A stretch of 61,544 bases of DNA from Candidatus Omnitrophota bacterium. Lineage in GTDB: Bacteria; Omnitrophota; Gorgyraeia; 2-01-FULL-45-10. Below the pieces are notes generated by a model that saw only the letters and a program-made list of their open reading frames with translations, searched no databases and was not told the origin of the DNA. The position numbers were made by a program, and so were the translations under genes. The DNA lies in assembly GCA_003142795.1 (NCBI GenBank), contig PLNN01000028.1, positions 1-61,544 of the forward strand, written 5' to 3'. Below, piece after piece: positions 9,024 to 22,187 of this stretch (the first letter of the stretch is position 1; every line of letters starts with the position of its first letter).

Positions 9024-10049
9024 TCATCCTATTTTCATCTGTTTGACCAGCAACACCAGAAAGACCATACTCGTGTTATGTATAATATGGACCGTTATCG
9101 GCGCAACGAGCGTTCCCGTCTTCTCATATAAATATACCAGCAGTAACCCGAGCGCCATTATCGGGACGAACCCGACCGCATGCGCGTGCAGGCCGGCGAA
9201 AATAGATGCCGTAACTAGCGCTGCCCAGAATATACCGACGCGCTTTTTCAGGGCGTTATACATGAATCCCCTGAAAAACAATTCCTCAATCATCGGGCCG
9301 ACGAGCGCCGCGAACAATACCGTATATCCCAGGAACATGACATTTTTTTCCTTCATGAACAGAGTAACCACCGCTTGCTCTTTCGGGATGTAATGGACCA
9401 GATCGGTAACAAGCGATACCGCGATGAGGATAGTAAGCAGGAGCGGCACTGCCGCGATATAGCCTGCTATGCCGTAAAGGACATTCCTGATGAAATTTTT
9501 AAAAGATATCCCTAACGCGATCAATTTTTCTTTATGCCGGCTCAGCGCAAAATATATTATAAAGACCACGGCCAGCGTATCCAGTATCGATGAATTAACT
9601 ATCATCCTGAGGTCATTATTCTTTACGACAGGAAATGTTTTTGCCATAAAAGCTTCTATCAAAATAAGCATGTAGCCGAAGAACGAGAAAAGTATCACGA
9701 CCCTGCACACATCCCATAAATTCCAGCTCACCTTATGCGTCTTATATGTCAAAATATCTATCCTCTTCCCTGTCAGTTTCCATATCAGCAATGCCAGGTC
9801 TAGCAACAGCCCTAAAGACAGGATAAGTAATATGAGAAGCGAGGCGATAGTGAACAGGTCGCGCAGACCTTTATTTGCCTCAAAGACCCTTTCGACGGCC
9901 TGCTTTTTCAATCCCGGAGCCGATTCCTTATGCGGGGCTTGAACATGTTTCGCGCTGTGCGTCACGACGATCACGTTCATGAGCATGACAAAGACGAGGA
10001 GGAGCAGATAAAGCCGTTCTTTCCTGAGAAAATTTAAAATATTTCTCAT
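9024..10049 (-). CDS. CPBP-family (CAAX) intramembrane glutamic endopeptidase
   Basis: Polytopic membrane protein with EELFFRG, FAGLHAH and HIIHN motifs. Confidence 0.75.
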   Translation of the reverse strand: MRNILNFLRKERLYLLLLVFVMLMNVIVVTHSAKHVQAPHKESAPGLKKQAVERVFEANKGLRDLFTIASLLILLILSLGLLLDLALLIWKLTGKRIDILTYKTHKVSWNLWDVCRVVILFSFFGYMLILIEAFMAKTFPVVKNNDLRMIVNSSILDTLAVVFIIYFALSRHKEKLIALGISFKNFIRNVLYGIAGYIAAVPLLLTILIAVSLVTDLVHYIPKEQAVVTLFMKEKNVMFLGYTVLFAALVGPMIEELFFRGFMYNALKKRVGIFWAALVTASIFAGLHAHAVGFVPIMALGLLLVYLYEKTGTLVAPITVHIIHNTSMVFLVLLVKQMKIG

Positions 10050-11413
10050 CCCACCACCCCGAAAGATCTCAGCCGGAATTTCGCTCCCAGGCTTTTAGCG
10101 ATCGACTCGCATCTTTTCACGTCGACGCCGGGAAGGTCGAGACAAGTCGCTTCAGTTTCGATACCGCTTGCCGCGCAATCCTTGATAAAATCGATAACAT
10201 GGCCATAAGCCTTTGGCCCGGATTCGGGCTTGCATATCTTATTATATTGGGCTTCGTTTTCCGCGTTCAGGCTCACAGAGACCCTGTCGACGAGCCCGAT
10301 AATCTCCTTCACGACCGGGCGGCCGTTTATAAGAACAGCGTGGCCGTTCGTCACAAGCCTGACCTTTAAGCCTTTGGCTTTCATATCTTTTGCGATCGCC
10401 TTCATTACGTCAAGCCTTGCCGTCGGCTCGCCGTATCCGCAGAATACTATCTCTTTGTATTTCTTCGGGTCGCCGATCGCCTTCAGGATCTCGTCTACAG
10501 ACGGCTCTTTCTCGAGCCGAAGATTGTGGCCCTTGACAAAAGCTGTCTGTGCCCTCACGCAGAAGTCGCATCTATTGGTGCATCTGTTCGTTATATTGAG
10601 ATATAGCGAATCCCTTATCTCATAAGCGATCTTCGCTTTCTCACCCAGATCCAACCCAAAGAATGAATTCGCATTATGCGTTGTGATCCTGGCAATATCT
10701 TCTTTCGACAACCCGAGGATCTTAACCCACTCGTCAACGAGATACGTTAAATAGGCCGGCTCATTACGCTTGCCCCGTAATTCCTGAGGCGCCAGGAACG
10801 GCGCGTCGGTCTCCAGGAATAGCCTTTCCGGGCGCATGGCTTTTGCGGCCTCGCGCAAGTCCCCGGCATTTTTGAAGGTAAGGCTGCCCGTAAATGATAT
10901 ATAAAGCCCCATATCAAGGCATTCTTTTAAGAGGTCGGCGTCACCGGCAAAACAATGCATCACGGCCTTCACCCCGTTCTTATTTTCCCGTCTCAATAGA
11001 TCGAGCGCATCGTCCCTGGCGTCCCTGGAATGCACTATCAAAGGTTTATTAATATCCCGGGCAAGATGGATAAATTTTTTGAACACAGCGATCTGTTCTT
11101 CTCTGGGCGAAATATTTCTGTAGTAATCGAGCCCGACCTCGCCGACCGCGACCACTTTATTTTCTCCGGCAAGACCTTTAAGCTCGGCCATCGTTTTATC
11201 GGTCACGGTCTTAGCATCGTGCGGATGGACCCCGACAGAGGCATATACCATGTCGTATTTCGCGGCAAGCTCTATCGAGCGGCGCGAGCCTTGCATGGAG
11301 CTTGCGACATTTATCATCTTACCTACGCCTGCATTCACGGCCCTGTCTATAACTTCATCCCGGTCATTGTCGAAGTCCTTGAAATCGAGATGGCAGTGTG
11401 TATCTATCAGCAT
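10046..11413 (-). CDS. Fusion protein: a TatD-family metal-dependent hydrolase (N-terminal, about 10630-11413) joined to a TatD-associated radical SAM domain (C-terminal, about 10046-10630)
   Basis: TatD blocks are IDTHCHLDF, GEVGLDY, VHSRDA, MHCF.G and ETDAPFL. After about aa 262 come NITNRCTNRCDFCVR (CxxxCxxC) and CGYGEPT. Confidence 0.8.
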   Translation of the reverse strand: MLIDTHCHLDFKDFDNDRDEVIDRAVNAGVGKMINVASSMQGSRRSIELAAKYDMVYASVGVHPHDAKTVTDKTMAELKGLAGENKVVAVGEVGLDYYRNISPREEQIAVFKKFIHLARDINKPLIVHSRDARDDALDLLRRENKNGVKAVMHCFAGDADLLKECLDMGLYISFTGSLTFKNAGDLREAAKAMRPERLFLETDAPFLAPQELRGKRNEPAYLTYLVDEWVKILGLSKEDIARITTHNANSFFGLDLGEKAKIAYEIRDSLYLNITNRCTNRCDFCVRAQTAFVKGHNLRLEKEPSVDEILKAIGDPKKYKEIVFCGYGEPTARLDVMKAIAKDMKAKGLKVRLVTNGHAVLINGRPVVKEIIGLVDRVSVSLNAENEAQYNKICKPESGPKAYGHVIDFIKDCAASGIETEATCLDLPGVDVKRCESIAKSLGAKFRLRSFGVVG

Positions 11414-12324
11414 CGGATCCTCCCATCATGCCGCTTATATCTTCTTATAAGCAGGAACTCCAGCACCCCCATGGCCATGCCGGCTATATAAAAAACGTCC
11501 CCTATGGTCATGAAAATCGTAAAAATTATCTTTTTCCGGTTTCGATAACCATTCCTGGCAAAGCAATGGCGGTATATCCGGAACGTCTCCAGCATCGTAA
11601 GGGTTTTACGCTTTATGAGGACATTATGTTTGCCGTAAAAAAAAGCTTTCTTCAGCCAGGTCACGATGTCCTGGACCTCAAGATGATGCGCCTTCATACG
11701 GTCGAAATACAATATCCTGCAGCTTCTATCGTTCATCACACACCGCTGTATTATCTCCGTGTCTCCCGGGACGGGCCATTCCGCCATGGGACCGAATCTC
11801 TTAAAGACATCCGCGCGCACCGCCATATTATTGGTATAGCCGTAATATTTTCTTTTTGTCATGACCCTCATCATGTAGTCGGCTCTGGCATTCTGGCAGT
11901 CCTCGAACAACCTCAGCACCGAAAAACGTCCGCAGTTGAACGAAACGTTCCCAAGGGCGACAAATATGTCCGGCTCCTTCATGACATCATAGATCCGGCT
12001 CAGCCAATCACCTGCAACAATACAATCCGCATCCGTAAACGCTATTATATCCCCGCGCGCAGCATTTATACCCCTATTGCGGGCAGTGTAGACGTTACGC
12101 TTATTCTCGCGCAAAAGTCTTATATTGTCAAACTTTCCCACTATATTTGGAGAATCATCCGTAGAGCCGTTATCGATAAATATGATCTCATATTTATCTT
12201 TCGGGAAGTCCTGCCCCGTCAAAGAAGCGGCGCATTCACCGATATACTTTTCTTCATTTAAAAATGGCACTATAATAGAAAATATCATATAACATCCCGC
12301 CGCATAAAACGGTAATATTGCCAC
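11407..12324 (-). CDS. Family 2 glycosyltransferase
   Basis: IIVPFLNEE.YI, IIFIDNGSTDDS and the FTDADC (DxD) GT-A signature. Confidence 0.8.
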   Translation of the reverse strand: MAILPFYAAGCYMIFSIIVPFLNEEKYIGECAASLTGQDFPKDKYEIIFIDNGSTDDSPNIVGKFDNIRLLRENKRNVYTARNRGINAARGDIIAFTDADCIVAGDWLSRIYDVMKEPDIFVALGNVSFNCGRFSVLRLFEDCQNARADYMMRVMTKRKYYGYTNNMAVRADVFKRFGPMAEWPVPGDTEIIQRCVMNDRSCRILYFDRMKAHHLEVQDIVTWLKKAFFYGKHNVLIKRKTLTMLETFRIYRHCFARNGYRNRKKIIFTIFMTIGDVFYIAGMAMGVLEFLLIRRYKRHDGRIRC

Positions 12325-13199
12325 AGCCTCTTATAAGGCATAAAAAATCTTATCGCGGGTTTGTCATCAGGCCTTTTTATGCCCAGCGCTTTCAGAATGG
12401 AAAATAACGTATTGTCAAACGGGGTCGGTGTCCACTTACCTGCCCAATGGACAAGAAATACCGGATGGCACTCAAGGACAATTTTGCCGTTCCTGACCTT
12501 CCTTCCTTTAGTACCGGCCCACTGCTCCAGCGCTATGCCTGGGTAAAGCCCCTTTTTCCACAGCACAAATAAACTTGTATACCTGCCGCCCGATGTAACA
12601 ATAAGATAATTCAAAAAAGGCTGTTCGTAAGAAAGAGGCAGCGTGTGCGGCTTCAGGCCCGGGATGGCGGCTATCTTAATTCTTATCTCCGCAAGAGCAA
12701 TGGCTCCCTTCTTCGATGCGATAAATCCCGTATTTGCCGCATAGTCTATCTGCTCATTCGCCAATAATCCTGCACCATATATGGATTCTTTCCATGTCCA
12801 TTTGACTATGTGCGCCATATTGGAGTGCGATGCCACGAAATCATAGTCTGACAACATCTTAAAAACAAAATCGATATTTTCCAGGACGACCGTATCCACG
12901 TCGATATAGATGAATTCGTCAAACTCTCCTTCCCATATCGCGAGCTTCCTGTAGTGGCCCAATGGTTTATTGTGGAATTTAAGATTTATGCTGTCGTACC
13001 AATCGTACACTTTCGTATTTGAAAAGATCGAAAAGCCGTATGCGCCCTGCAGCTCTTTCAGCCTGGCTATATTGTCGCTGAACGGTATCAGGCAGAGCGC
13101 AATTGACGGATTGTGTTTTCTGAAGCTATTCAGAAAGGCAATGGCCAGCTCTACGACGCCGTCGTCCGCCAAAAAATATACACCCCTGGAAACTTTCAC
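12285..13199 (-). CDS. Hypothetical protein, possibly a GT8-like nucleotide-diphospho-sugar transferase
   Basis: The N-terminal beta-alpha pattern VYFLADDG..ELAIAFLNS and YIDVDTVVL (DxD) suggest a GT-A fold. I recognise no specific family. Confidence 0.4.
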   Translation of the reverse strand: MKVSRGVYFLADDGVVELAIAFLNSFRKHNPSIALCLIPFSDNIARLKELQGAYGFSIFSNTKVYDWYDSINLKFHNKPLGHYRKLAIWEGEFDEFIYIDVDTVVLENIDFVFKMLSDYDFVASHSNMAHIVKWTWKESIYGAGLLANEQIDYAANTGFIASKKGAIALAEIRIKIAAIPGLKPHTLPLSYEQPFLNYLIVTSGGRYTSLFVLWKKGLYPGIALEQWAGTKGRKVRNGKIVLECHPVFLVHWAGKWTPTPFDNTLFSILKALGIKRPDDKPAIRFFMPYKRLWQYYRFMRRDVI

Positions 13200-14161
13200 G
13201 AATCACTCTTTCGTCCGGACATCGCTTTGTTATACAAATAATGATCACAGGCATCAACGGAACACTTGCATACATCGAACGGGCATGCCATTAATTTATC
13301 GTTAAACTTTATTTTTTTATAAATATTTCCGGTCGCATATCTTTTCAGCTGATAACAAGGGTAAATGCTGCCGTCCGAGAATACTACCGCTATGTTGTAA
13401 CCCGCATTACAGATTTTCCGTTTCGAATCGGTCCTGCTCTTACATGAAGGCTCTAAGCCGAAGATATCAATCTCTTTATCCGTATACGCTTCGGGATACC
13501 ATTGTCCATTATAACTTCCTACAAATGGATCAAAAACTATTTTTATCCCTTTTTTCTTGAAAAAATCTTTATATTTCTCCACCTCACCGAGAATGGCGGG
13601 GTAGGCAACCCCTTTGGATAAAAGCGGGAATCCGCATTCCTGTAATTTTAGGAAATTTTTTATGTATTCAGACAAAAGGTCTCGCCTTTCCAGCTCTTTA
13701 ATGTGTAATGACGCGATGATGACGATGACCCTCTTGGGGTCAACCTTTTCGGAAAATTCATCTACTTTTCCGGTAACAAAATTAGTATTTATCGAGATGA
13801 AATGCCTTTTTGTTATTTCCGCGCACGCCTCTACGAAGTTCGGCACCAAAAACGGCTCTCCCCCGGCGAAATTAATCCGGAAGGTATTCCTTGTCGCATC
13901 GAGGGCCCTTATGAGCCGGCCGATTTTTATCGGCATGATCCTTCCGGCTTTCTTATAAATTACCAGATGCCTTAGCAAAGACGGGATACCCATATTAAGG
14001 GCTATCCAGGCCTTATCCAATACACCGCGGATCTTCTCCTTTTTATACTCGTAGGCGCCCGTCTTAGAAATACAGTAGACGCAATCGAATGTGCAGATAT
14101 GCGTCGGAGACCATAATAAGCCCGCGTCGTATTGGCAGCCGCCGGTCAATTTTTCGGTCAT
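13196..14161 (-). CDS. Radical SAM protein with a SPASM/twitch-like C-terminal Cys cluster (paralog 1)
   Basis: CTFDCVYC (CxxxCxxC), GGEPFL, and C-terminal CNAGYN...DGSIYPC...CPFDVCKCSVDAC. It aligns along its whole length with the adjacent gene. Confidence 0.75.
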   Translation of the reverse strand: MTEKLTGGCQYDAGLLWSPTHICTFDCVYCISKTGAYEYKKEKIRGVLDKAWIALNMGIPSLLRHLVIYKKAGRIMPIKIGRLIRALDATRNTFRINFAGGEPFLVPNFVEACAEITKRHFISINTNFVTGKVDEFSEKVDPKRVIVIIASLHIKELERRDLLSEYIKNFLKLQECGFPLLSKGVAYPAILGEVEKYKDFFKKKGIKIVFDPFVGSYNGQWYPEAYTDKEIDIFGLEPSCKSRTDSKRKICNAGYNIAVVFSDGSIYPCYQLKRYATGNIYKKIKFNDKLMACPFDVCKCSVDACDHYLYNKAMSGRKSDS

Positions 14162-15126
14162 GACAGCACCTTCAGGGCCTCGTCTTGTATTTGCCCAGCC
14201 ATTGCTTTGTTATATAAATAAAGGTCTCCGATGTCGGGCGGACATTCGCAGACATCGAGCGGGCAATCTCTTAATTTATTTCTTAACAAAATATTTTTAT
14301 ATATGTGACCTATTTTTTCATGCGGCCGCGAAAGCTGATAGCATGGGTAGACAGCGCCGTCCGGCAGCGCTACCATCGTATTATAACCCGCATTGCAATT
14401 CTTTCTCCGCGAATCGAATCTGTTCCTTATAGAAGGATCTAAATTGAATGCCTTAAGCTCCCCGTCGGTATACGATCCGGGGTATTGCCGGCCGGCATAT
14501 TGCCCCGCGAAAGGAACAAATATCAAATCTATATTTTTCTCCTTAAAAAATTTTTTATATCTTTCCGTTTCGCGGGAAAGAGGTGGATACGCCACTTCGT
14601 TCGCAAATATGACAAAACCCCGCGCCTGGAATTTCCGGAAGTTATCCATATATTTAGACAGGAGGCCATGCCTTTCCAACTCTTTGATATGCAATGACGC
14701 GATGATAAAAATCACTCTTCCGGGATCGATCCGCTCGATAAATTCATCGCCGTTATCCATGCTCAGGTTAGTGACCAAAGCGATAAAATGCTTTTTTGTT
14801 ATCTCCACGCACGCTTCAATTATATTGGGCACCAAAAATGGTTCTCCTCCGGTAAAATTGACCCTGAAAATTTTCCCCGTCTCATCAAGCGTCTTCATGA
14901 GGCGCGGTATATCTATTGGGCGGACCCTTTCCTGCCATCTGCGCTTGATCAAATTCCATAGCAGCAACATCCCTAACATGTTACGCAGCTCGACATAAGG
15001 CCTTTCTCCGCATTTCTCTTCATTTTTACGGGAGATACAGTAAGCGCAATTCAGATTGCATTTAGACGTCACGCACAATGATAAGCCTATATCATATTGC
15101 TGCATATTATCTGAGCGTTCCGGCAT
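14158..15126 (-). CDS. Radical SAM protein with a SPASM/twitch-like C-terminal Cys cluster (paralog 2)
   Basis: CNLNCAYC, GGEPFL, CNAGYN...DGAVYPC...CPLDVCECPPD. It shares long identical blocks with paralog 1 (GGEPFLVPN, IIASLHIKELER, LYLYNKAM). Confidence 0.75.
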   Translation of the reverse strand: MPERSDNMQQYDIGLSLCVTSKCNLNCAYCISRKNEEKCGERPYVELRNMLGMLLLWNLIKRRWQERVRPIDIPRLMKTLDETGKIFRVNFTGGEPFLVPNIIEACVEITKKHFIALVTNLSMDNGDEFIERIDPGRVIFIIASLHIKELERHGLLSKYMDNFRKFQARGFVIFANEVAYPPLSRETERYKKFFKEKNIDLIFVPFAGQYAGRQYPGSYTDGELKAFNLDPSIRNRFDSRRKNCNAGYNTMVALPDGAVYPCYQLSRPHEKIGHIYKNILLRNKLRDCPLDVCECPPDIGDLYLYNKAMAGQIQDEALKVLS

Positions 15127-16180
15127 AAGTTTTATTCCCGCATGTTTTTCTTATTGTTGAAAAAGGATAAAAACAAAAACCCAGGATCAGAGAAAGGCCG
15201 CCGTATATATAATATAAAATATGCATTGGAAATACAAAAAGAGTAAAGAGCCAGCCCTTTTTATTATAAAAAAACCGGTAGAAACGAATATTCAAAAGTA
15301 AGAAGCCAGCTAATAAAAACGCGGCAAGCCAAAAGGCATGAGACGACCCGTGAAATAACATCATCACCGAAGACAGTACCAAGAGCATGCTGAGCCCGGC
15401 GCTCCATCGCGTATTAAGGTCGTTCCGGGCCATTCTATATTTAAGCATCAGCGCGGCCCATGGAATACCTCTATGGAATATATCCGAGCCGAGCATATCA
15501 AGTAAAGACCACTTTTTAAGATGTTTTACCTGGAGACCCTTTATCAGCTCTATGTGATATCCGTTTTTAACCAGGCGCATGCCGAGCTCGATATCCTCGA
15601 CCGAGGGGCGGGAAAAACTTTCCTGGAACCCGCCGATCCTCGAAAAAGCATCTCTTCTTATTGCCCCGCACCCGGCCCAGAACGTTGAAGCCTCACCTTT
15701 AGAATTTTGATGCACAAAATGATGAAATAGGTTCTTATATTGTGATACAAAATCCGGGTGGGCAGGTTTGTCATCATATGAACCGAAGATAGCGTCTATT
15801 CCGGAATTGTGCTTGAAAAAATTATCGATCATCTTCAAGGTCTCTTTCCGGACCAGCACATCATCATCTAAAAAGACGAGCAAGCCACTTGTTGAGGCCT
15901 CCGCGCCTCTATTCCTGGCTTGGGCGGGCCCGCGATTTACCGGCAGTCTTATCAAGCGGGCAGGATATTTTTCTATCGCGCCTGTTACGTCATCTGTAGA
16001 TGCATCGTCTACCAGAATGCACTCAAAATCGGAAAAATCCGAAGCAAATATTGCCTCTATGCAGGGCCCGAGATCCGCCCCCGGGTTGTGCGTCGGGATT
16101 ATTATCGATATTGCCGGCTTCATAAGATCAGTCCCATCCTCTACGATTCCAGATATTCGCTGTCCGCATTCACATGCCAC
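15107..16180 (-). CDS. Family 2 glycosyltransferase with a C-terminal multi-TM region (polyprenyl-phosphate glycosyltransferase-like architecture)
   Basis: ISIIIPTHN, ILVDDASTDD and LDDD are followed by about 4 hydrophobic helices. The real start is probably MKPAISIIIP. Confidence 0.8.
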   Translation of the reverse strand: MACECGQRISGIVEDGTDLMKPAISIIIPTHNPGADLGPCIEAIFASDFSDFECILVDDASTDDVTGAIEKYPARLIRLPVNRGPAQARNRGAEASTSGLLVFLDDDVLVRKETLKMIDNFFKHNSGIDAIFGSYDDKPAHPDFVSQYKNLFHHFVHQNSKGEASTFWAGCGAIRRDAFSRIGGFQESFSRPSVEDIELGMRLVKNGYHIELIKGLQVKHLKKWSLLDMLGSDIFHRGIPWAALMLKYRMARNDLNTRWSAGLSMLLVLSSVMMLFHGSSHAFWLAAFLLAGFLLLNIRFYRFFYNKKGWLFTLFVFPMHILYYIYGGLSLILGFCFYPFSTIRKTCGNKTYAGTLR

Positions 16181-17622
16181 AGGTCGGAATGCCCTTTACC
16201 CAGATAATTATTCGCCGCGTATATTCCCGTAAGAAGCGCGTGGTCTGAATTATCATAACGGAACAGTCCTGCTCTGCCCATCGTCTGAAAATTATCGAAC
16301 CTCGACAGGTAATCGCGTATAATGCCTATATTCTTTAAATAATCCATGGAATAAAAAGGATAGGCGTTAGGCTGACGCACCACAAAGGCATCTATCAGAT
16401 AACGACGGCTGGTAATGCCTATCTTCTCCAGTTCCTTTAAGGCAAAATTTATCAGGTTTATATCGTCCTTCCGCCACAGGTCATCGCCCTCGCTGCAAAA
16501 GTATTCCAGGCCTAACGAGGTCTTCTCGGCATCCGGCACCATGGACGGGCTCCAGTTCTTGAAATTCTGTATCCGGCCCAATCGGACTTCCGGAGAATGC
16601 ACATAAAGCCACTGGTCCGGGAATATGTATTCTCTATCCAATATTACGTTAACGGTGATAAGGTCCCGGAATTTAAGCCTGCCCGCGGCAGCGATAACTT
16701 CCTGCGGAGGCGCCGGTTCCAACAGCCTGGCGCAGACAGGCAGCGGCATGCTGGAAAAGAGGTAATCCGTCTCGATCGTTCCTTTTTTACCGTCCGATAC
16801 GGATTCCGTTTCTACCGCAACTATCCTTTTGTCGTTATGCCTTATCTTTACCGCTCTTGTGCCGAAAGAAAAAGACCCTCCCCGCTCAAGGCAATTTTTC
16901 TGCAGACGCAAATAAAATTCTCCCGGGCCATTTTTAGGATAGATGAACTCCTCGCTCAATGTCTTGGGCGCGTTCTTTCTCTTCCCCGGAAGCGAATTTT
17001 TTAATGCCACCCTCAGCGAAAGACCTTTTATTCTCTGCTTTGCCCAGTCGGCGGATAGATCGCGGCAGGCAACCGCCCACACTTTTTCCGTATAAGTCCT
17101 GAAAAAGATATTATATAACCTGCGCCCGAAATTGTTGATGATCCAGCCTTCGAACGTGTTTTTATCCCCAGAGGGGAAAATTTTATTCTTCAGATAATCG
17201 AGAAAGCAAAGGCCGCTTTCCCATACGCCCAGGTTCCAGAGCGTATCCAGAAAATGAAGAGGATATTTAAAGAACCTCCTCCTGTAATATATCCTGGACA
17301 GCCTTCTAACCCTGGTCAGGTCCTCGTCCAGCATCTTATACCAAAGGCTATTCACCGTCCCGGACTTCGAAAGGAACCTGTGCCCTCCGACGTCAAAAAG
17401 GTAACCGTTAAAATCGATGGTGCGGCACAATCCGCCTGCCTCGTTATTTTCGTCAACCAATAAGAAAGGCGCGCCTTCTTCTGCCAGCGTATAAGCACAG
17501 CCCATGCCTGCCGGGCCGCTTCCGATGATCGTCGTCTTATGTGCGTTCATACGATGCCAATACTTCCTGGACGCCGCCATCCATGCGCAAGACCCCCTTT
17601 TCGAACCACAGGGCGCGGTCAC
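16141..17622 (-). CDS. FAD/NAD(P)-binding oxidoreductase (amine-oxidase / UDP-galactopyranose-mutase-like fold)
   Basis: Rossmann dinucleotide motif IIGSGPAGMGCA...VDEN...GG. The likely start is MNAHKTT near 17550, which removes most of the apparent 86-nt overlap with the upstream gene. Confidence 0.7.
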   Translation of the reverse strand: MTAPCGSKRGSCAWMAASRKYWHRMNAHKTTIIGSGPAGMGCAYTLAEEGAPFLLVDENNEAGGLCRTIDFNGYLFDVGGHRFLSKSGTVNSLWYKMLDEDLTRVRRLSRIYYRRRFFKYPLHFLDTLWNLGVWESGLCFLDYLKNKIFPSGDKNTFEGWIINNFGRRLYNIFFRTYTEKVWAVACRDLSADWAKQRIKGLSLRVALKNSLPGKRKNAPKTLSEEFIYPKNGPGEFYLRLQKNCLERGGSFSFGTRAVKIRHNDKRIVAVETESVSDGKKGTIETDYLFSSMPLPVCARLLEPAPPQEVIAAAGRLKFRDLITVNVILDREYIFPDQWLYVHSPEVRLGRIQNFKNWSPSMVPDAEKTSLGLEYFCSEGDDLWRKDDINLINFALKELEKIGITSRRYLIDAFVVRQPNAYPFYSMDYLKNIGIIRDYLSRFDNFQTMGRAGLFRYDNSDHALLTGIYAANNYLGKGHSDLWHVNADSEYLES

Positions 17623-18265
17623 AATGCTTTTTTAAAAAAGCTAGATCGTGAGAGGCAATAATGACGGTCCTGGGCGAGGAATGGAGCCCGGTGAAATACT
17701 TTTCGCATTTATCGGCGAAATCGTTGTCTATAAAAGCAAAGCTTTCGTCGAAGATCAAAAAATCCGCGGATGCCTGAAAGAATATGCTTATGGCAAGACG
17801 CTGCATTTGCCCCGAAGACAGGTCTTTAAGAGGGACATAGCGCAAATGATAGAGCCCCGCGGTCGTTATGACCTCCTCCATATGCATTTCGAGGAAACGC
17901 TTATCGATACCGTGTATCGCGCCGAACAAATATACATTATCGACAACGGAGAGGAACAGGTCAAAACCTATCCAGCATTTGAACAGAGTTGCCGGAATGC
18001 CGCTCACTTCAAGACATCCTGAAGTCTCACCATAAATGCCGCTTATAAGCCTGAGAAGGGTGGTCTTTCCCGAGCCGTTTTTACCGATGACCGCCACTTT
18101 TTCACCTTTTTTAATTCCAAACGAAACATCCTTGAGAGCCCACAACTCCTTCGTCATCGACTCTCCCCTGAAAAACGTTTTCATTGCACGCAACAGCGTG
18201 CTTTCGCGCTGGAGAATGCGAAAACATTTCGATAAATTCTCCGCCTTTATGTAAATATCACTCAT
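17537..18265 (-). CDS. ABC transporter ATP-binding protein, polysaccharide/teichoic-acid exporter type (Wzt/TagH-like)
   Basis: Walker A GKNGSGKTT, signature LSSGQ, Walker B LIFDE. It is paired with an ABC-2 permease. Confidence 0.8.
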   Translation of the reverse strand: MSDIYIKAENLSKCFRILQRESTLLRAMKTFFRGESMTKELWALKDVSFGIKKGEKVAVIGKNGSGKTTLLRLISGIYGETSGCLEVSGIPATLFKCWIGFDLFLSVVDNVYLFGAIHGIDKRFLEMHMEEVITTAGLYHLRYVPLKDLSSGQMQRLAISIFFQASADFLIFDESFAFIDNDFADKCEKYFTGLHSSPRTVIIASHDLAFLKKHCDRALWFEKGVLRMDGGVQEVLASYERT

Positions 18266-19050
18266 ATTTTTTCCATGCCCTTGTTTTCAAAAAGCACAAA
18301 AAGATAATACGCCAGGCCGAAATAAAAAACGGCCAGGAACATGCTGTATGCATAAGTGAACCAGTCTATGCGGCCCTTGCTCATGAAGACTTCGTGAAAG
18401 GAGATCACGAACGGGGTTAAGGGATTAAGCAAATAAATTAATTCTTTGGCAAGGCGCGGCAGTTTTTCCAATGTATAAAATATAGGAGTAACAAAAAAAA
18501 GCATCCGCATGAGGATGGTCCATATGTGATATATATCGCGGGTAAAGCAATAGGCAAGCGAAATTATCATGCTTATTCCTAAAACAAAGACAATATACGC
18601 GGAGAAAAGCGGCAACGATAATATAAAACCTTTCCATGAAAAAAGACCGTAAAAGATGCTTAAAATATAGCAGATTGCCAGTTCGATCATAAATTTATAA
18701 ATATGGACAAAAGACTCGGACAAAATAAGTATTTCGCGGCGGATGGTAGTATTGAGAACAATGTCCCTGTTATAAAAAAATATCCTGCTGATATAGCCCG
18801 TGGCGGTAATAAAGAAATTCGCGCATACGATCCCAAGCAAAAGGTAAAGCGGATAGGCATAAACTCCGTGACCAAAATTTTGCCGGAATATAAAATACAT
18901 TATTAAAAGGAACACAAGAGGCCCGGCCAGGCTCCATAATATGCCGAAAAAGGTATTCTGGTCGCCCATCTTGAATTTCGACCAGATAAGCTCCCTTAAA
19001 AGGTTGCGATTAGGCCTATCGAAGAGTTTTCTTTTAGCTAATCGGCTCAT
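18262..19050 (-). CDS. ABC-2 type exporter permease (Wzm/TagG-like)
   Basis: About 6 hydrophobic helices, a 4-nt overlap with the ATPase gene, and the size and N-terminal cytoplasmic stretch typical of ABC-2 permeases. Confidence 0.7.
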   Translation of the reverse strand: MSRLAKRKLFDRPNRNLLRELIWSKFKMGDQNTFFGILWSLAGPLVFLLIMYFIFRQNFGHGVYAYPLYLLLGIVCANFFITATGYISRIFFYNRDIVLNTTIRREILILSESFVHIYKFMIELAICYILSIFYGLFSWKGFILSLPLFSAYIVFVLGISMIISLAYCFTRDIYHIWTILMRMLFFVTPIFYTLEKLPRLAKELIYLLNPLTPFVISFHEVFMSKGRIDWFTYAYSMFLAVFYFGLAYYLFVLFENKGMEKI

Positions 19051-19071
19051 TACATTATTCCTAAAAACACG

Positions 19072-19857
19072 TTAGGCCCTGAGCATGGATCGAAGAGATG
19101 CCGGCAATATCTTTAAAAAAGGATGCTTCGCTCCATAAACAAACATTTTTTCAGATTTATAAAAGTCCAGCATCTCATGCTTTCTTTCATTAAAGTGAAC
19201 GACGCTGCTGCCATAGAAATCTATAAAACTGATCTTGTCTGTTTTGCTTCTGGCGATAGAATAGATTACAGCATCTTCGGGACAGCCAGGGACCGACCTG
19301 TTTTTAGCTTTCATTGTTTCGTTATTTACCTTATCAAATACCTCCGCAAAGATATCTTTATTGAAATCGCTTAGTTGCGGAATGAAAGAGCTTTTTAAAA
19401 AATAACAGCCGCCCTGTGTAAAGAAAAAAGGGGCGCACCAGGTCTCCTTGTGGCCCAGCAAATTATCCCCGGACTTTAAAACACTCGCAAATACATCATC
19501 GGAAATGAATAAGACGTCCGAATCTACTTTTGCCACATAGTGTTCGGGATCGATCTCTTCGCTGATATCTTTAAATACCTGCAATTCTACACGGACAGTC
19601 TGTTCGCCGGCCCAGCTAAATTTCTCGCGCTTTCTCACAATCAAATCAGATCTCAGTTTTTTTAAGGACCGCATCTGCATTTCGGTTAAAAAATCTTCCT
19701 TATCAATGTATAGATACACATTCCCTAGGGATGCCGAGCGCAGAGCGGCCAGGCTTTTCAAAGAAAGAAATAAATAATCGAAATGTTTGCGGCATGAAAA
19801 ATAGACAACATGCATCTTATCGCTACCCGATACTTTATTTGAGAATAATCGTTTCAT
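19072..19857 (-). CDS. Hypothetical protein, possibly a GT-A-like transferase
   Basis: The ORF is in an operonic position. VAKVDSDVLF (DxD-like) is the only cue. Confidence 0.35.
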   Translation of the reverse strand: MKRLFSNKVSGSDKMHVVYFSCRKHFDYLFLSLKSLAALRSASLGNVYLYIDKEDFLTEMQMRSLKKLRSDLIVRKREKFSWAGEQTVRVELQVFKDISEEIDPEHYVAKVDSDVLFISDDVFASVLKSGDNLLGHKETWCAPFFFTQGGCYFLKSSFIPQLSDFNKDIFAEVFDKVNNETMKAKNRSVPGCPEDAVIYSIARSKTDKISFIDFYGSSVVHFNERKHEMLDFYKSEKMFVYGAKHPFLKILPASLRSMLRA

Positions 19858-20744
19858 ATTCTATTTGCCCATAACGACGACATGCGATCGTATGATAGCG
19901 CGGCCATGTCCTTCAAACCGTATCTATAGCCTATCTTTTCCAGCAGGATCCGGCGCGCTTCATCGCGAAGGTCCCGTTTTAAAGGGTGGTACATTATATT
20001 CAGATCGCGATCCGCAGCATACGCCACCTCTTCTTTGCCAATGTAAGGACGCCATCTCATGCGCCAGGAAGATTGCGGCGCTCCTTCATGCAAATAGGTC
20101 AGGCGGGGTGCAAATCCCGCATCTTTTAGCAGGTTTGGCACGATCAATTCGTCGAGACACAGGCCTTTTTGCTTCATTGTCAGGTAACCCGGATTATTTT
20201 CGATTATGTTTATGCGGTCTGCGATGAAATTAACCGCTTCTTTGGAATGAACCTGAAACGCACCCAGACATCCCGAGATCCTCGCATCCTTCCTCGAGAG
20301 CCCCAGATCGGATAAGATCCGATGGTAAGACCCTATGTTTTCCGAGAATTTTTTTGCCCACAGCCAATTACATTTGCCGTCATTTTCGTCGACGGAATCC
20401 AAAAAATCGAATTTTCCTGCAAAGATCCCGTCTATGCCGGAATTCGCAAATAGACAATCCGAATCCAGCTTTATAAAATAGTCAAAATTCAAGTTACGTA
20501 TCTCTTCAAGGGCATCGAAAATAAAATTTTGCAACTGATGATATTTGTATTCTCTTTTATTTTTTATTTTTCTTAACCGGTCATAAGAATGGCCTATATC
20601 CTTATCACTTGAGAACAGGACTAACGGGTCGTGGCAAAATTTTTTGATGCTGTAATATAACTGCTTAGTGTAGATGAACTGCTCAGCTACAGGCAATCCA
20701 AATATCAATTTAAGGCTCATATGATCCCAACGCTCCTTAAACAT
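19854..20744 (-). CDS. Hypothetical protein, possibly a GT-A-like transferase
   Basis: The ORF overlaps its neighbour by 4 nt. FIKLDSDCLF (DxD-like) is the only cue. Confidence 0.3.
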   Translation of the reverse strand: MFKERWDHMSLKLIFGLPVAEQFIYTKQLYYSIKKFCHDPLVLFSSDKDIGHSYDRLRKIKNKREYKYHQLQNFIFDALEEIRNLNFDYFIKLDSDCLFANSGIDGIFAGKFDFLDSVDENDGKCNWLWAKKFSENIGSYHRILSDLGLSRKDARISGCLGAFQVHSKEAVNFIADRINIIENNPGYLTMKQKGLCLDELIVPNLLKDAGFAPRLTYLHEGAPQSSWRMRWRPYIGKEEVAYAADRDLNIMYHPLKRDLRDEARRILLEKIGYRYGLKDMAALSYDRMSSLWANRI

Positions 20745-20751
20745 TGTCGTA

Positions 20752-22083
20752 TCAGAAAGGACATTTCATCAGGTCCGTGCTAAAAAAGGTAAAAAGCGAG
20801 CTTAATTTTAATGCCCAGAGCCCCGTTAAAATTATTAGTACTGAAGAAACAAAATAGCCCGATAAAAATAATTTCTCATTCAGCGCCCTTTCCAGCTTTA
20901 CCAGCGCCAGGCCGGAAAGAATGGCTATAGCAGGATATGCAAGAAGCATATACCTGTCCTCTTTGCACCATAAAAAGAGAGATAAAAACAGAAAGATCGC
21001 CGCGAACCAGGATATCAGAAAAAATTTCGCATCCCTGTCCCTCTTCTTAATGAAAAAAGTGAATATCGATACGCAGCCGAGTAAATATAGCGGGAACTGG
21101 AATAGCATGTTCACCAGATATACATACCGCGGCCTCTGACCGATCGATACCAGCCAGGGCGTGATGGTTACCGGTATTTTAGGCGCGCTGAGGACATAAG
21201 TTTTACGAAATGACAACAGCCAGGGGCAACTGATCATGGCCGCCGCAAAAACAATGATGACTACTTTTGGGTCGAAAAGGATACCGAAAAACCGGCTGAT
21301 CTTTTTCAGGCCGGAGCGGTTTATCCAGAGATGATGCAGGATTATCGCCAATATGATAAATCCTCCGGTAAATTTAGTTAAAAAGGCTATCCCGGCGCAG
21401 ATGCCAGATAATAACGCGAACATAATGTTATTACGCCTGACGGATAAAAAATAAAATACGGCTGTCATGACGGTGAAAAAGGTAAGCGTCGTATCCGCCC
21501 ATATCTTACTGGTAACGACCAATTCCACCGGCGTCAAAGAGAGCATCAGCGCCGCATATAAGCCTATCCGCTCGCTGAACAGCATTTTCCCCAAGGTGTA
21601 AGTGAAAAATATCGACAAAATACTAAAGAGAAAAGGCACCAGTGCCGCATAGAATTGTAAATGCCAGTAAGGATTGCCGCTGAAGCTGGACATGAAATAC
21701 TGCCCATTGGAGGAAAAAATCCTGTGAGAAAGCATTAGAAGAAAACTGAAGGCCGGCGGGCGATGCGTGGGTATCCCGTTTTCGTAATTTACACCGGACA
21801 TCGCCAACAAATTCCCGACACTTTTATTACCTATTACTGGGACATTGAAATATCCATTGGAATAAATATCTACAAAATGAAGATTGAAATTTTTAGCGAA
21901 ATCCTTAAAACCGTAACTATCCAGTTTCATGGCCAGGCTTGTATAAGCGGTCTCGTCAAAATTGGTGTGCGTGAGATAGAATATAGGTAGCCTTAAAAAA
22001 GCTGCAAATATCAAAACGAAAAATATCGGTAGAAAGCTGAATTTCAGGTCTTTGCCCTTAAGCATATTATTGGATTTTATCAC
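20752..22083 (-). CDS. GT-C fold membrane glycosyltransferase (ArnT / PMT_2, family 39/83-like)
   Basis: About 11 predicted TM helices. The first periplasmic loop has an acidic FDE motif (THTNFDETAYTSLA) and a basic RRN follows the 'TK' loop, typical of ArnT/PMT-like enzymes. The track uses a GTG start at 22083, and ATG at 22065 is an alternative. Confidence 0.6.
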   Translation of the reverse strand: MIKSNNMLKGKDLKFSFLPIFFVLIFAAFLRLPIFYLTHTNFDETAYTSLAMKLDSYGFKDFAKNFNLHFVDIYSNGYFNVPVIGNKSVGNLLAMSGVNYENGIPTHRPPAFSFLLMLSHRIFSSNGQYFMSSFSGNPYWHLQFYAALVPFLFSILSIFFTYTLGKMLFSERIGLYAALMLSLTPVELVVTSKIWADTTLTFFTVMTAVFYFLSVRRNNIMFALLSGICAGIAFLTKFTGGFIILAIILHHLWINRSGLKKISRFFGILFDPKVVIIVFAAAMISCPWLLSFRKTYVLSAPKIPVTITPWLVSIGQRPRYVYLVNMLFQFPLYLLGCVSIFTFFIKKRDRDAKFFLISWFAAIFLFLSLFLWCKEDRYMLLAYPAIAILSGLALVKLERALNEKLFLSGYFVSSVLIILTGLWALKLSSLFTFFSTDLMKCPF

Positions 22084-22102
22084 GTTTTAAGGGCGGGGTC
22101 AA
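22063..22102 (-). promoter_or_regulatory. Candidate internal promoter TTGACC-N17-TAAAAT for the glycan cluster. It would give a near-leaderless mRNA starting at ATG 22065.
   Basis: The minus strand reads TTGACC at 22102-22097 and TAAAAT at 22079-22074, with ATG 8 nt downstream of the -10 box. No SD precedes either candidate start. Confidence 0.25.
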
Positions 22103-22121
22103 AGGGAAAACTTGACCGTTA

Positions 22122-22158
22122 TAAAAAAAGGCGTTCCTACGTTGATGTAAGAACGCCT
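22122..22158 (-). terminator. Rho-independent terminator of the giant gene
   Basis: The minus-strand RNA forms AGGCGUUC/GAACGCCU (8 bp), one mismatch, then a further 3 bp (UAC/GUA) and a 6-nt loop. UUUUUUUAU follows immediately. The hairpin ends about 30 nt after the stop at 22188. Confidence 0.65.
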
Positions 22159-22187
22159 AATGTAACTATTGTAGTATAATTATATGC

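Follow-up and report, generated by a model that had tools for sequence, protein, structure and literature searches.

A variable cluster of putative envelope glycan genes between a giant gene and a conserved gene string in a Candidatus Omnitrophota bacterium

The Klebsiella pneumoniae O1/O2 rfb locus, with the gene order wzm-wzt-wbbM-glf-wbbN-wbbO, and the mycobacterial galactan, which is exported by Wzm/Wzt, are among the described systems nearest to the gene cluster considered here. This cluster is located in a stretch of 61,544 nucleotides (called "the window", i.e., the whole stretch which was analysed) from a Candidatus Omnitrophota bacterium (assembly GCA_003142795.1, contig PLNN01000028.1). 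In the S-layer locus of Geobacillus stearothermophilus NRS 2004/3a (wzm/wzt, rhamnan glycosyltransferases, WsaB), a glycan dependent on an ATP-binding cassette (ABC) transporter ends on a surface protein which is encoded beside the locus. Three-component systems for glycosylation include Gtr of Salmonella and Shigella and GacI-L of the group A carbohydrate. Omnitrophota are uncultured, often host-attached nanobacteria; their contact with prey or host is believed to depend on the giant exported proteins and the cell surface. A three-component system of extracytoplasmic glycosylation with a pentofuranose, containing a GT136 enzyme, was reported for Citrobacter youngae O1/O2 (Kelly et al. 2024, PMC11127046).

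The cluster consists of eleven tightly packed open reading frames (ORFs) on the minus strand of the window (11407–22083), downstream of the terminator of a giant gene. From their sequences, the eleven genes would appear to be a mosaic, laterally variable island for an ABC-transporter-dependent envelope glycan with a furanose, plus an accessory periplasmic decoration. The island was probably inserted between the terminator of the giant gene and a conserved string of genes beginning with tatD-rSAM; its place behind the giant gene would then be incidental, or due to a shared variable region. Taken as a whole, this is the reading towards which we lean, with a confidence slightly better than even. 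A preliminary description of this DNA had proposed a combination of a GT-C glycosyltransferase with a Wzm/Wzt-type route, and had named the giant protein as an obvious candidate acceptor. Searches with Pfam, NCBIfam and PDB sequences confirmed all ORFs at their places on the minus strand, with families essentially as listed there, and the combination of a PMT_2-type GT-C enzyme with a Wzm/Wzt-type exporter (plus a flavoenzyme resembling UDP-galactopyranose mutase, UGM) was supported as well. The genes, in the order of transcription, and the features at the borders are:

20752–22083, minus: GT-C glycosyltransferase, 443 amino acids (aa), about 9–10 transmembrane (TM) helices; PMT_2 51 bits, PMT 42 bits
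19854–20744, minus: unkA, member of a rare DxD-protein family; invariant DSD94-96, D113, E199, H253, D261, R264
19072–19857, minus: unkB, rare glycosyltransferase of GT-A fold; invariant KVDSDxLFIS, GGxYFLK and PED motifs
18262–19050, minus: Wzm-like ABC-2 permease, 6 TM helices; ABC2_membrane 26.3 bits (cut-off 26.9), galactan Wzm/RfbD 5e-7
17537–18265, minus: Wzt/TagH-like ABC ATPase, 242 aa; ABC_tran 76 bits, galactan Wzt/RfbE 1e-41, then TagH 1e-34
16141–17622, minus: UGM-like flavin adenine dinucleotide (FAD) enzyme, long (eukaryote-type), about 490 aa; NF005548 (PRK07208) 575 bits
15107–16180, minus: membrane GT2 (GT2-TM) with GT-A domain, amphipathic helix and 3–4 C-terminal TM helices; Pfam GT2, Glyco_trans_2_3, GT21
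14158–15126, minus: radical S-adenosylmethionine (radical SAM, rSAM) enzyme 1; CxxxCxxC, C-terminal Cys-rich SPASM/twitch-like region; Radical_SAM 47 bits
13196–14161, minus: radical SAM enzyme 2, paralog of enzyme 1, about 50–52% identical
12285–13199, minus: GT8-like protein (retaining GT-A) of the Npun_R2821/R2822 family; NF045582 1e-32, 114 bits against a cut-off of 250
11407–12324, minus: GT2 with one predicted C-terminal TM helix (266–284); Glycos_transf_2 110 bits
22188–31520, minus: giant gene, left neighbour of the cluster, 3110 aa; cleavable signal peptide, TAL_FSA domain
22129–22158, minus: intrinsic terminator of the giant gene, 12-bp GC-rich stem, 6-nt loop, T7 tail, read directly from the sequence
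10046–11413, minus: right border, tatD fused to a TatD-associated radical SAM domain (tatD-rSAM); Pfam, TIGR04038 256 bits

Variability and borders of the island

The genome of the window (G000) is a metagenome-assembled genome (MAG) of Omnitrophota with 1.94 Mb in 70 contigs; the other G numbers designate Omnitrophota relatives. In three relatives from the same family (G015, G012 and G003), a giant gene which shares parts of the giant of the window is followed directly by tatD-rSAM and then by CAAX and/or DUF362 genes, and no glycan genes were found between giant gene and tatD-rSAM; G015 additionally shows metRS upstream of the giant gene. The closest copy of the cluster, with 52–73% amino acid identity, was found on a metagenome scaffold from ENA (scaffold_289), between ftsA and tatD/rSAM. 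Its order is ftsA - rSAM - GT31 - unkA - (GT14 and GT2 on the opposite strand) - GT2 - GT17 - rSAM - unkB - Wzm - Wzt - FAD - GT2TM - rSAM - GT8like - GT2 - tatD/rSAM; it thus contains three rSAM genes and, compared with the window, an extra GT31, GT17, GT14 and rSAM gene, and neither a GT-C gene nor a giant gene is present in it. The housekeeping genes at its flanks are as diverged (57–71% aa identity) as those of G015, G012 and G003. Since the relatives lack the cluster and scaffold_289 differs at its left, the cluster is regarded as a variable island which consists of a conserved core and a variable left part; the GT-C gene of the window lies at the variable left edge. The distribution in the phylum is patchy: the radical SAM family was present in 8 of 301 genomes, the UGM-like gene in 89 of 401, and full-length GT-C orthologs (30–40% identity) in 7 of 300, none of them in the family of G000 itself. 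The GC content is 44.3% in the island and 47.0% outside. A preprint on complete Omnitrophota genomes (10.64898/2026.06.07.730766) describes polysaccharide cassettes as hypervariable or mobile cargo, and the recurrent flanks of giant genes as secretion or pilus genes and glycoside hydrolases, not glycosyltransferases. The glycan cluster is thus a swappable island and not a fixed companion of the giant gene, which tempers an attractive but weakly founded story.

At the left border, the hairpin at 22158–22129 with its run of T bears out the terminator which had been postulated behind the giant gene; it is by far the strongest terminator-like site within 5000–23000 (18 kb). Between terminator and GT-C gene there is a promoter-like extended -10 site (TTGACC-17-TG-TAAAAT, 22074–22102, minus), the -10 element of which overlaps with the GTG annotated as the start of the GT-C gene; the true start of this gene may be the ATG at codon 7. 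Such promoter-like sites were not more common than expected by chance (33 observed, 32.1 expected), and the candidate at 22102–22074 is therefore not taken as evidence.

The packing of the genes is tight, as had been described, but the longer ones among the junction overlaps, which had been given as 4–40 nt, depend on the choice of starts. Overlaps of 20–86 nt hinge on upstream GTG starts (for radical SAM enzyme 1, on the longest ATG start); if translation begins at internal ATGs instead, as the shorter relatives favour, most junctions are 4-nt overlaps or gaps of not more than 21 nt. The overlaps of stop and start codons suggest co-translation. At the right border, the last GT2 gene overlaps tatD-rSAM by 7 nt, and dense packing carries on through five more housekeeping genes; beyond 11407, the same strand encodes tatD-rSAM, a CAAX protease, a DUF362 protein, an mtnA-like and a thiL-like protein. 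An operon is therefore not delimited at 11407, since the tight co-directional string runs on into tatD-rSAM and the later genes; of the single operon proposed earlier, the packing stands and the end does not. The tatD-rSAM fusion is kept at 65–71% identity in four relatives; it is a conserved housekeeping gene outside of the glycan cluster.

Mutase, glycosyltransferases, exporter and tailoring enzymes

The long flavoenzyme is, by its motifs, probably a nucleotide-sugar pyranose/furanose mutase. Its best matches in the PDB were eukaryote-type UGMs from A. fumigatus and T. cruzi (1e-23 to 1e-20). The alignment with the A. fumigatus enzyme (3UKA) preserves the DVGGH flavin loop, FxRxYxxKVWAV, WLY...R...N(Y/W)SP and GRxGxxRY..N.DH; the elements of the UGM signature, i.e., the FAD Rossmann fold, the flavin-loop His and the two conserved Arg which bind the pyrophosphate, are all present, and the Pfam GLF match is partial only (E=0.004). 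With the eukaryote-type enzymes (A. fumigatus 3UKA/3UTE, T. cruzi 4DSG) the protein of the window shares the length, the Rossmann fold, the GGH flavin loop and both blocks with the pyrophosphate-binding Arg; it differs in being bacterial, in its identity of about a quarter (estimated by eye from the alignment) and in its membership of the uncharacterised PRK07208 group. Translation probably begins about 24 codons further downstream than annotated. The preliminary description had seen no genes for nucleotide-sugar synthesis in the cluster; the UGM-like enzyme itself is a nucleotide-sugar-modifying enzyme. A second UGM-like paralog with 38% identity is encoded elsewhere in the genome (G000:C54:81386-82789); in the 20 kb around it no relatives of the proteins of the cluster, including the conserved membrane GT2, were found.

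The family of the membrane GT2 is very large (over 6600 homologs, about 45% identical) and has invariant D, DxD, ED and QVKHLKRW motifs. Its AlphaFold2 model (pLDDT 91.7) gave BcsA (TMq 0.59) and the Pyrobaculum enzyme PcManGT (0.52) as top fold matches over the whole length; generic GT2 matches dominated the ranking by E-value, and neither GtrB nor dolichyl-phosphate mannose synthase (DPMS) was among the top 50. With PcManGT (PDB 6YV7) and BcsA the protein shares, besides these highest whole-length TM-scores, the D, DxD, ED and QxxRW-like motifs, and the sequence match to PcManGT (4e-8) covers the N-terminal GT2 domain. It differs in having 3–4 TM helices only, which makes a translocation channel unlikely, and in having the mutase as its conserved partner. 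The protein had been likened to the polyprenyl-phosphate-sugar synthases GtrB and ArnC. The fold search could not settle this assignment, which was rejected on the grounds of sequence models: among the NCBIfam models, ArnC (PRK10714), PgfS and AglJ were not matched, while the GT2 partners of GT-C orthologs elsewhere match at 1e-46 to 1e-73. A weak full-length NCBIfam match was obtained with the lipid-acting HpnB, and a weaker, partial one with HpnI.

The neighbourhoods of the membrane GT2 were compared with one genome per species, and the 80 best loci were kept; the phyla represented included cyanobacteria, Acidobacteriota, Planctomycetota, Desulfobacterota, Chloroflexota, Nitrospirota and others. 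In 47 of these loci a UGM-like gene (40–51% identity) lies within 4.5 kb of the GT2-TM gene, mostly abutting and co-directional. Mutase and membrane GT2 are thus the best-conserved core, and a tighter and more general couple than GT2-TM and GT-C. The pairing of a membrane GT2 with a GT-C enzyme, which had been taken as the classic module, has a counterpart in loci of other phyla where FAD, GT2TM and GT-C genes stand in a row, but it is the looser of the two. A tblastn search with the GT-C of the window against the 80 loci found no GT-C; a Pfam scan of 37 large polytopic proteins in the neighbourhoods yielded 10 PMT_2, 4 DIE2_ALG10 and 1 GT87 matches, where families may overlap within a protein. 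Common neighbours were polysaccharide deacetylases (36 loci), further GT2s, Wzx, ABC exporters and GFO/IDH oxidoreductases. The deacetylase gene (Polysacc_deac_1) is located about 3.5 kb downstream on the same strand (36 of the 80 loci, L068–L147), especially in cyanobacteria; this neighbour suggests an N-acetylated furanose or a deacetylated product. No name for the PRK07208 flavoprotein family or for the pair was found in the literature. The pair, widespread from Omnitrophota to cyanobacteria and acidobacteria and uncharacterised, is probably a new route by which furanose enters cell envelopes.

Two requirements of an ABC-dependent pathway are found together in the cluster, namely a permease with its cognate ATPase, and cytoplasmic glycosyltransferases for the assembly of a polymer. 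The best NCBIfam names for the exporter are those of the galactan Wzm/Wzt models, with scores far below the equivalog cut-offs. The ATPase consists of the nucleotide-binding domain only and is devoid of a C-terminal carbohydrate-binding domain; the same holds for Wzt of the Klebsiella O2a type. This fits the uncapped subtype of the pathway; chain-length control by a terminator enzyme together with such a domain of Wzt belongs to the capped subtype only.

The cluster encodes five or six GT-A enzymes plus the GT-C enzyme; the two GT2s and the GT8-like protein are directly supported, unkB by its fold, and unkA is a probable member. No Pfam match was obtained for unkB, and the profile gave nothing meaningful against PDB sequences; its AlphaFold2 model (pLDDT 83.9, pTM 0.81) shows a GT-A glycosyltransferase fold, with B3GalT5 (GT31), the A. 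fumigatus galactofuranosyltransferase GfsA and LgtC (GT8) as top Foldseek matches (TM about 0.5). Only 13 homologs were found in 5.8 billion proteins; on archaeal contigs they adjoin ABC-2 exporters, GT2 and Wzx. One homolog with 70% identity (L047, Logan ERR12076146, 4144–4935) is isolated, with archease/RtcB/SerRS genes on one side, a sensor kinase on the other and no glycan genes nearby, and the unkB gene evidently moves as a single unit. The family of unkA has 17 representatives among 1.84 billion proteins; there was no Pfam match even at E=10 and no meaningful profile match in the PDB. That unkA is probably a GT-A-type glycosyltransferase is suggested by its DSD motif, by the fusion of one homolog (P0119) behind an N-terminal GT2 domain, and by a weak similarity to the unkB profile, where hhalign (probability 51%) aligns the DSD motifs with each other. 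Thus, two rare glycosyltransferase-like families were brought out, one of GT-A type by its fold (unkB), and one which its motifs suggest (unkA). The GT8-like protein had weak Pfam matches to Mannosyl_trans3 (E=6e-4) and GT8 (E=0.019), and marginal ones in the PDB to glycogenin and Skp1 alpha-GalT. For the last GT2, the best NCBIfam names were MftF and EpsD, with no full-length match to GtrB or ArnC; it had been called soluble, which the helix predicted at its C-terminus contradicts.

The two radical SAM enzymes have SPASM scores of 19.7 and 18.9 bits, below the cut-off of 21.5; the PDB matches of enzyme 1, to viperin and CteB, are marginal. Their family has 99 homologs in MAGs of Omnitrophota, Asgard and DPANN archaea, and the contexts are glycan loci, with PGT, UbiA, GT-C, GT17 and ABC-2 genes as neighbours. 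In an Omnitrophota MAG (GCA_026387355.1; L044, 8160–12876) a homolog is placed among genes for a WbaP-type transferase, a UbiA prenyltransferase and a PMT_2 GT-C, and in a Pacearchaeota sequence (DPANN; L046, 6081–11495) another comes after GT2, ABC-2 and ABC genes, with DUF6541 behind it. Such a radical SAM family of bacterial and archaeal glycan loci should be worth biochemical testing.

The GT-C enzyme is a minimal one, with a long first periplasmic loop carrying an invariant H39...D43-E44, and without a C-terminal soluble domain. The ortholog group of eight members keeps H39, D43 (the acidic motif of loop 1), K53, H120 and E375-R377-Y378; since these residues are invariant, the enzyme looks functional. 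It matched no NCBIfam model, that for ArnT included, and no PDB sequence. Elsewhere, its orthologs pair with GT2s which score as ArnC/PgfS (L039, 1.7e-73, full length) or as AglJ/dolichyl-phosphate hexose transferases; other neighbours are B12-radical SAM enzymes, methyltransferases, GT4 and a flippase-like LPG_synthase_TM protein. Those neighbourhoods form a canonical set for glycosylation from lipid donors, and a GT2 partner of this kind is missing in the window. The genome as a whole encodes 5 GtrB-like GT2s and 13 PMT_2 GT-Cs, several of them adjacent to each other (contigs C62, C66 and C58), which for 1.94 Mb is an unusually heavy investment in periplasmic glycosylation from lipid donors. 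The earlier step from PMT family to protein acceptor is not supported, since a PMT_2 match in Pfam does not imply one and the genome has 13 such enzymes. On other contigs, LpxC, 5 Wzy_C/WaaL-like proteins, 4 Glycos_transf_4 proteins (WecA/MraY family) and 1 Bac_transf protein (WbaP-type) are encoded. Neither an initiating transferase, the absence of which from the cluster had been remarked, nor a ligase (WaaL) or other attachment enzyme is present in the cluster or on contig C39; the proteins of these families just listed are encoded on other contigs. An end point linked to lipopolysaccharide (LPS), or a similar one, is feasible because of LpxC, the Wzy_C/WaaL-like proteins and the initiating transferases.

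The following pathway can be envisaged. The UGM-like flavoenzyme would convert a UDP-pyranose to the furanose form, most simply starting from UDP-Galp. On the cytoplasmic face, four or five transferases of GT-A fold (unkA, unkB, the GT8-like protein, the GT2 and the membrane GT2) would build the glycan on a polyprenyl carrier, which could be primed by a WecA/WbaP-type enzyme encoded elsewhere in the genome; the furanosyltransferase is likely to be the membrane GT2, which is conserved beside the mutase. The two radical SAM enzymes may tailor a sugar, e.g., by epimerisation or oxidation, and the Wzm/Wzt-type exporter would carry the lipid-linked product across the inner membrane. The final acceptor would most likely be lipid A-core, reached via one of the five WaaL/Wzy_C-like proteins. 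The PMT_2-type GT-C could be an accessory periplasmic enzyme, adding single sugars from a polyprenyl-phosphate donor, which may come from a GtrB-like synthase encoded elsewhere.

The giant protein and other possible explanations

About 9.4% of the G000 genome is taken up by 14 stop-free frames with a length of 2000 aa or more; four of them are arranged in tandem on contig C14, and the longest has 10558 aa. Just one of the 14 giants has cluster-like genes within 8 kb. Homologs of the N-terminus of the window's giant occur in 21 of 39 genomes of the family, without the cluster. Giants of this family share an N-terminal signal/anchor stretch, ...F(I/F)FNT..(S/L)D.A(F/L)A, while the rest of the protein may be unrelated; residues 1–56 are 40–59% identical, examples being the giant of the window and that of G018:C21 (L173, 351–10493). 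This stretch could be a lineage-specific sorting signal.

Among 60 other Omnitrophota loci with a UGM-like gene, four lie directly downstream of, and co-directional with, genes for large exported proteins, and two of these include a PMT_2 GT-C. The order in G018 is a TM-anchored protein of 3380 aa, PMT_2 GT-C, FAD, Wzm, Wzt and further glycosyltransferases; in G079, a protein of at least 5475 aa, FAD, a GT2-TM-like gene, GT2 and GHL10; in G298, an inverse autotransporter of 1234 aa, FAD and GT2-TM. The fourth (G258:C7; L183, 8550–19369) has an exported protein of 2596 aa, FAD and a PMT_2 GT-C of 520 aa, followed by greA; the N-terminus of the large protein resembles TpsA/filamentous haemagglutinin, with an NPNGI motif (by eye), and this string of three genes is the cleanest candidate for a furanosylation module dedicated to an adhesin. 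The four of 60 compare with about 1% expected (p about 0.01), where the null takes its giant density from G000 alone and the thresholds were set post hoc. In such genomes 15–20% of loci of any kind have a giant within a few kb, so that only orientation and immediacy are unusual; the giants of the four loci show no homology among themselves or with the giant of the window, and the GT-C of G018 is not orthologous to that of the window. The excess is a real but weak signal. It could mean that an undescribed module, in which a UGM-like mutase of the eukaryote type is joined by a membrane GT2 resembling cellulose synthase, by a PMT_2-type GT-C or by both of them, is recurrently recruited behind genes for giant or large exported proteins in Omnitrophota and decorates these proteins with furanose from a periplasmic lipid-linked donor; in the window the module would be merged with a Wzm/Wzt polymer pathway and radical SAM tailoring. 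We regard this joint proposal as doubtful. The modest excess does, however, provide a falsifiable lead on the glycosylation of giant proteins.

The favoured reading has to be weighed against these observations. Several points speak against an ABC-dependent envelope glycan with the giant as a bystander: the cluster is devoid of a chain terminator, a carbohydrate-binding domain of Wzt, an initiating transferase and a ligase; it also contains no flippase (of GtrA, MATE or LPG_synthase_TM type; no gap exceeds 21 nt) and no GtrB-type partner of the GT-C, which would mean that the GT-C draws on distant genes or that the membrane GT2 is its donor synthase; and the adjacency of the giant must be treated as coincidence or as shared residence in variable regions, while the four of 60 loci hint at a protein-related role. 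The most direct alternative is a dedicated glycosylation of the giant, in which a furanose linked to lipid by mutase and membrane GT2, or an ABC-exported glycan, is used and the GT-C transfers a sugar to Ser/Thr of the Sec-exported protein of 3110 aa. The cleavable signal peptide, the position of the GT-C gene as the first one after the giant gene, and the UGM-like modules directly behind unrelated large exported proteins in G018, G079, G258 and G298 are in line with it, and a glycosyltransferase gene placed behind the adhesin gene which it serves is familiar from HMW1/HMW1C and AIDA-I/Aah. It conflicts with the comparative data: the positional relatives of the giant in three genomes are without the cluster, the closest copy of the cluster is without giant and GT-C, the seven full-length GT-C orthologs from other families have no adjoining giant ORF, and the giant gene ends in a strong terminator ahead of the cluster, quite apart from the single giant out of 14 with glycan genes nearby, the lack of homology among the giants involved and their frequency near any locus. 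The co-occurrence of GT-C and giant genes, which the preliminary description had suggested as a check, was not found, nor do Ser/Thr-rich tracts stand out in the giant; the occurrence of the cluster away from giants, which it had named as speaking against its own proposal, was largely observed (G015, G012, G003, scaffold_289, the GT-C orthologs and 13 of the 14 giants). The giant as candidate acceptor is favoured by the triads of FAD, GT2TM and GT-C genes in other phyla and by the four of 60 loci, and the linkage is not conserved; a dedicated glycosylation of the giant thus appears rather improbable.

A slightly smaller probability is assigned to two or more independent pathways side by side, where mutase and membrane GT2 make their own furanosylated glycolipid or lipid-linked monosaccharide, and the exporter with the soluble glycosyltransferases, and the GT-C, serve other products. 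This would agree with the occurrence of the pair in 47 of 80 loci from many phyla, alone or with other partners (deacetylase, Wzx, GFO/IDH oxidoreductase, GT-C), with the weak full-length match of the membrane GT2 to HpnB, and with the different partners of the GT-C orthologs; but the order Wzm-Wzt-FAD-GT2TM-rSAM-GT8like-GT2 is intact in scaffold_289 at 52–73% identity, FAD, Wzm/Wzt and GT2-TM genes are linked in other Omnitrophota loci (L161, L163, L176, L179, L187, L202), and the stop/start overlaps suggest co-translation. Two further explanations are essentially excluded. An LPS-modification locus with the GT-C as an ArnT-like modifier of lipid A or core is very improbable: PMT_2 in Pfam also holds ArnT, and lipid A is made, as LpxC is encoded, but neither an ArnT-related NCBIfam model nor ArnA/B/C/D-type partners in the cluster were matched in Pfam and NCBIfam scans, so that membership in ArnT (GT83) was rejected; the protein has 443 aa and no C-terminal periplasmic domain, and its orthologs adjoin AglJ/ArnC-like GT2s, B12-rSAM enzymes and methyltransferases, not lipid A genes. 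An ArnT identity, the other outcome which had been named in advance as contrary to protein glycosylation, is thus not indicated. Still less probable is a cluster for a glycosylated, ABC-exported ribosomally synthesized and post-translationally modified peptide (RiPP) which the radical SAM/SPASM pair would mature. SPASM-like C-terminal Cys motifs and weak NCBIfam matches to peptide maturases such as PapB (1e-10 to 1e-5, well short of the cut-offs) are reminiscent of such systems, but the largest gap of 21 nt has no room for a precursor gene, the transporter is of the ABC-2/Wzm type and not a peptidase-containing exporter, and the rSAM homologs sit in glycan loci; for want of an adjacent precursor gene and with SPASM below threshold, this membership was rejected too.

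Comparison with described systems

An ABC-exported envelope glycan, the reading preferred here, would find its nearest counterparts in the Klebsiella O1/O2 locus and the mycobacterial galactan. Like these, the cluster unites in one locus an exporter of the Wzm/Wzt type, a pyranose/furanose mutase and several transferases of GT-A type, one of which is GT8-like. In contrast to these, the mutase of the window is long and eukaryote-like (about 490 aa, versus about 380 aa for bacterial Glf), the transferases are unrelated or belong to rare families, and radical SAM enzymes are present.

A GT-C beside an ABC-transporter-dependent glycan locus, together with a furanose-forming step, is reminiscent of the three-component systems, where decoration takes place in the periplasm after export. 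The cluster differs in having neither a GtrB/ArnC-type or phosphoribosyl pyrophosphate (PRPP)-dependent polyprenyl-phosphate synthase nor a GtrA/MATE flippase; the Wzm/Wzt exporter could perhaps stand in for the small flippase. In the C. youngae system the furanose is derived from PRPP, whereas a UGM-like mutase would provide it in the window; the GT-C of the window is of the PMT_2 type and is set beside GT136 by description only.

With the protein O-mannosyltransferases (GT39 PMT, and actinobacterial Pmt with Ppm1), the GT-C shares the PMT/PMT_2 domain, the acidic D-E motif of loop 1 and a Sec-exported protein encoded next door. Its scores are low (42–51 bits), a MIR domain is missing, the cluster contains no partner of the Ppm1 type, the genome has 13 PMT_2 paralogs of which this is one, and a conserved linkage to an acceptor gene was not found for its orthologs or for the relatives of the giant. 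In the S-layer locus of G. stearothermophilus, transfer to the protein is carried out by WsaB of the Wzy_C/WaaL family, not by a GT-C; the five Wzy_C genes of G000 are on other contigs.

Compared with the nearest described systems, the cluster is thus set apart by a mutase of the long type, a membrane GT2 which resembles cellulose synthase and takes the place of a GtrB-type synthase, the absence of a flippase, rare GT-A-like families and radical SAM enzymes. Several of its components are individually undescribed, while the kind of locus to which they belong is a known one.

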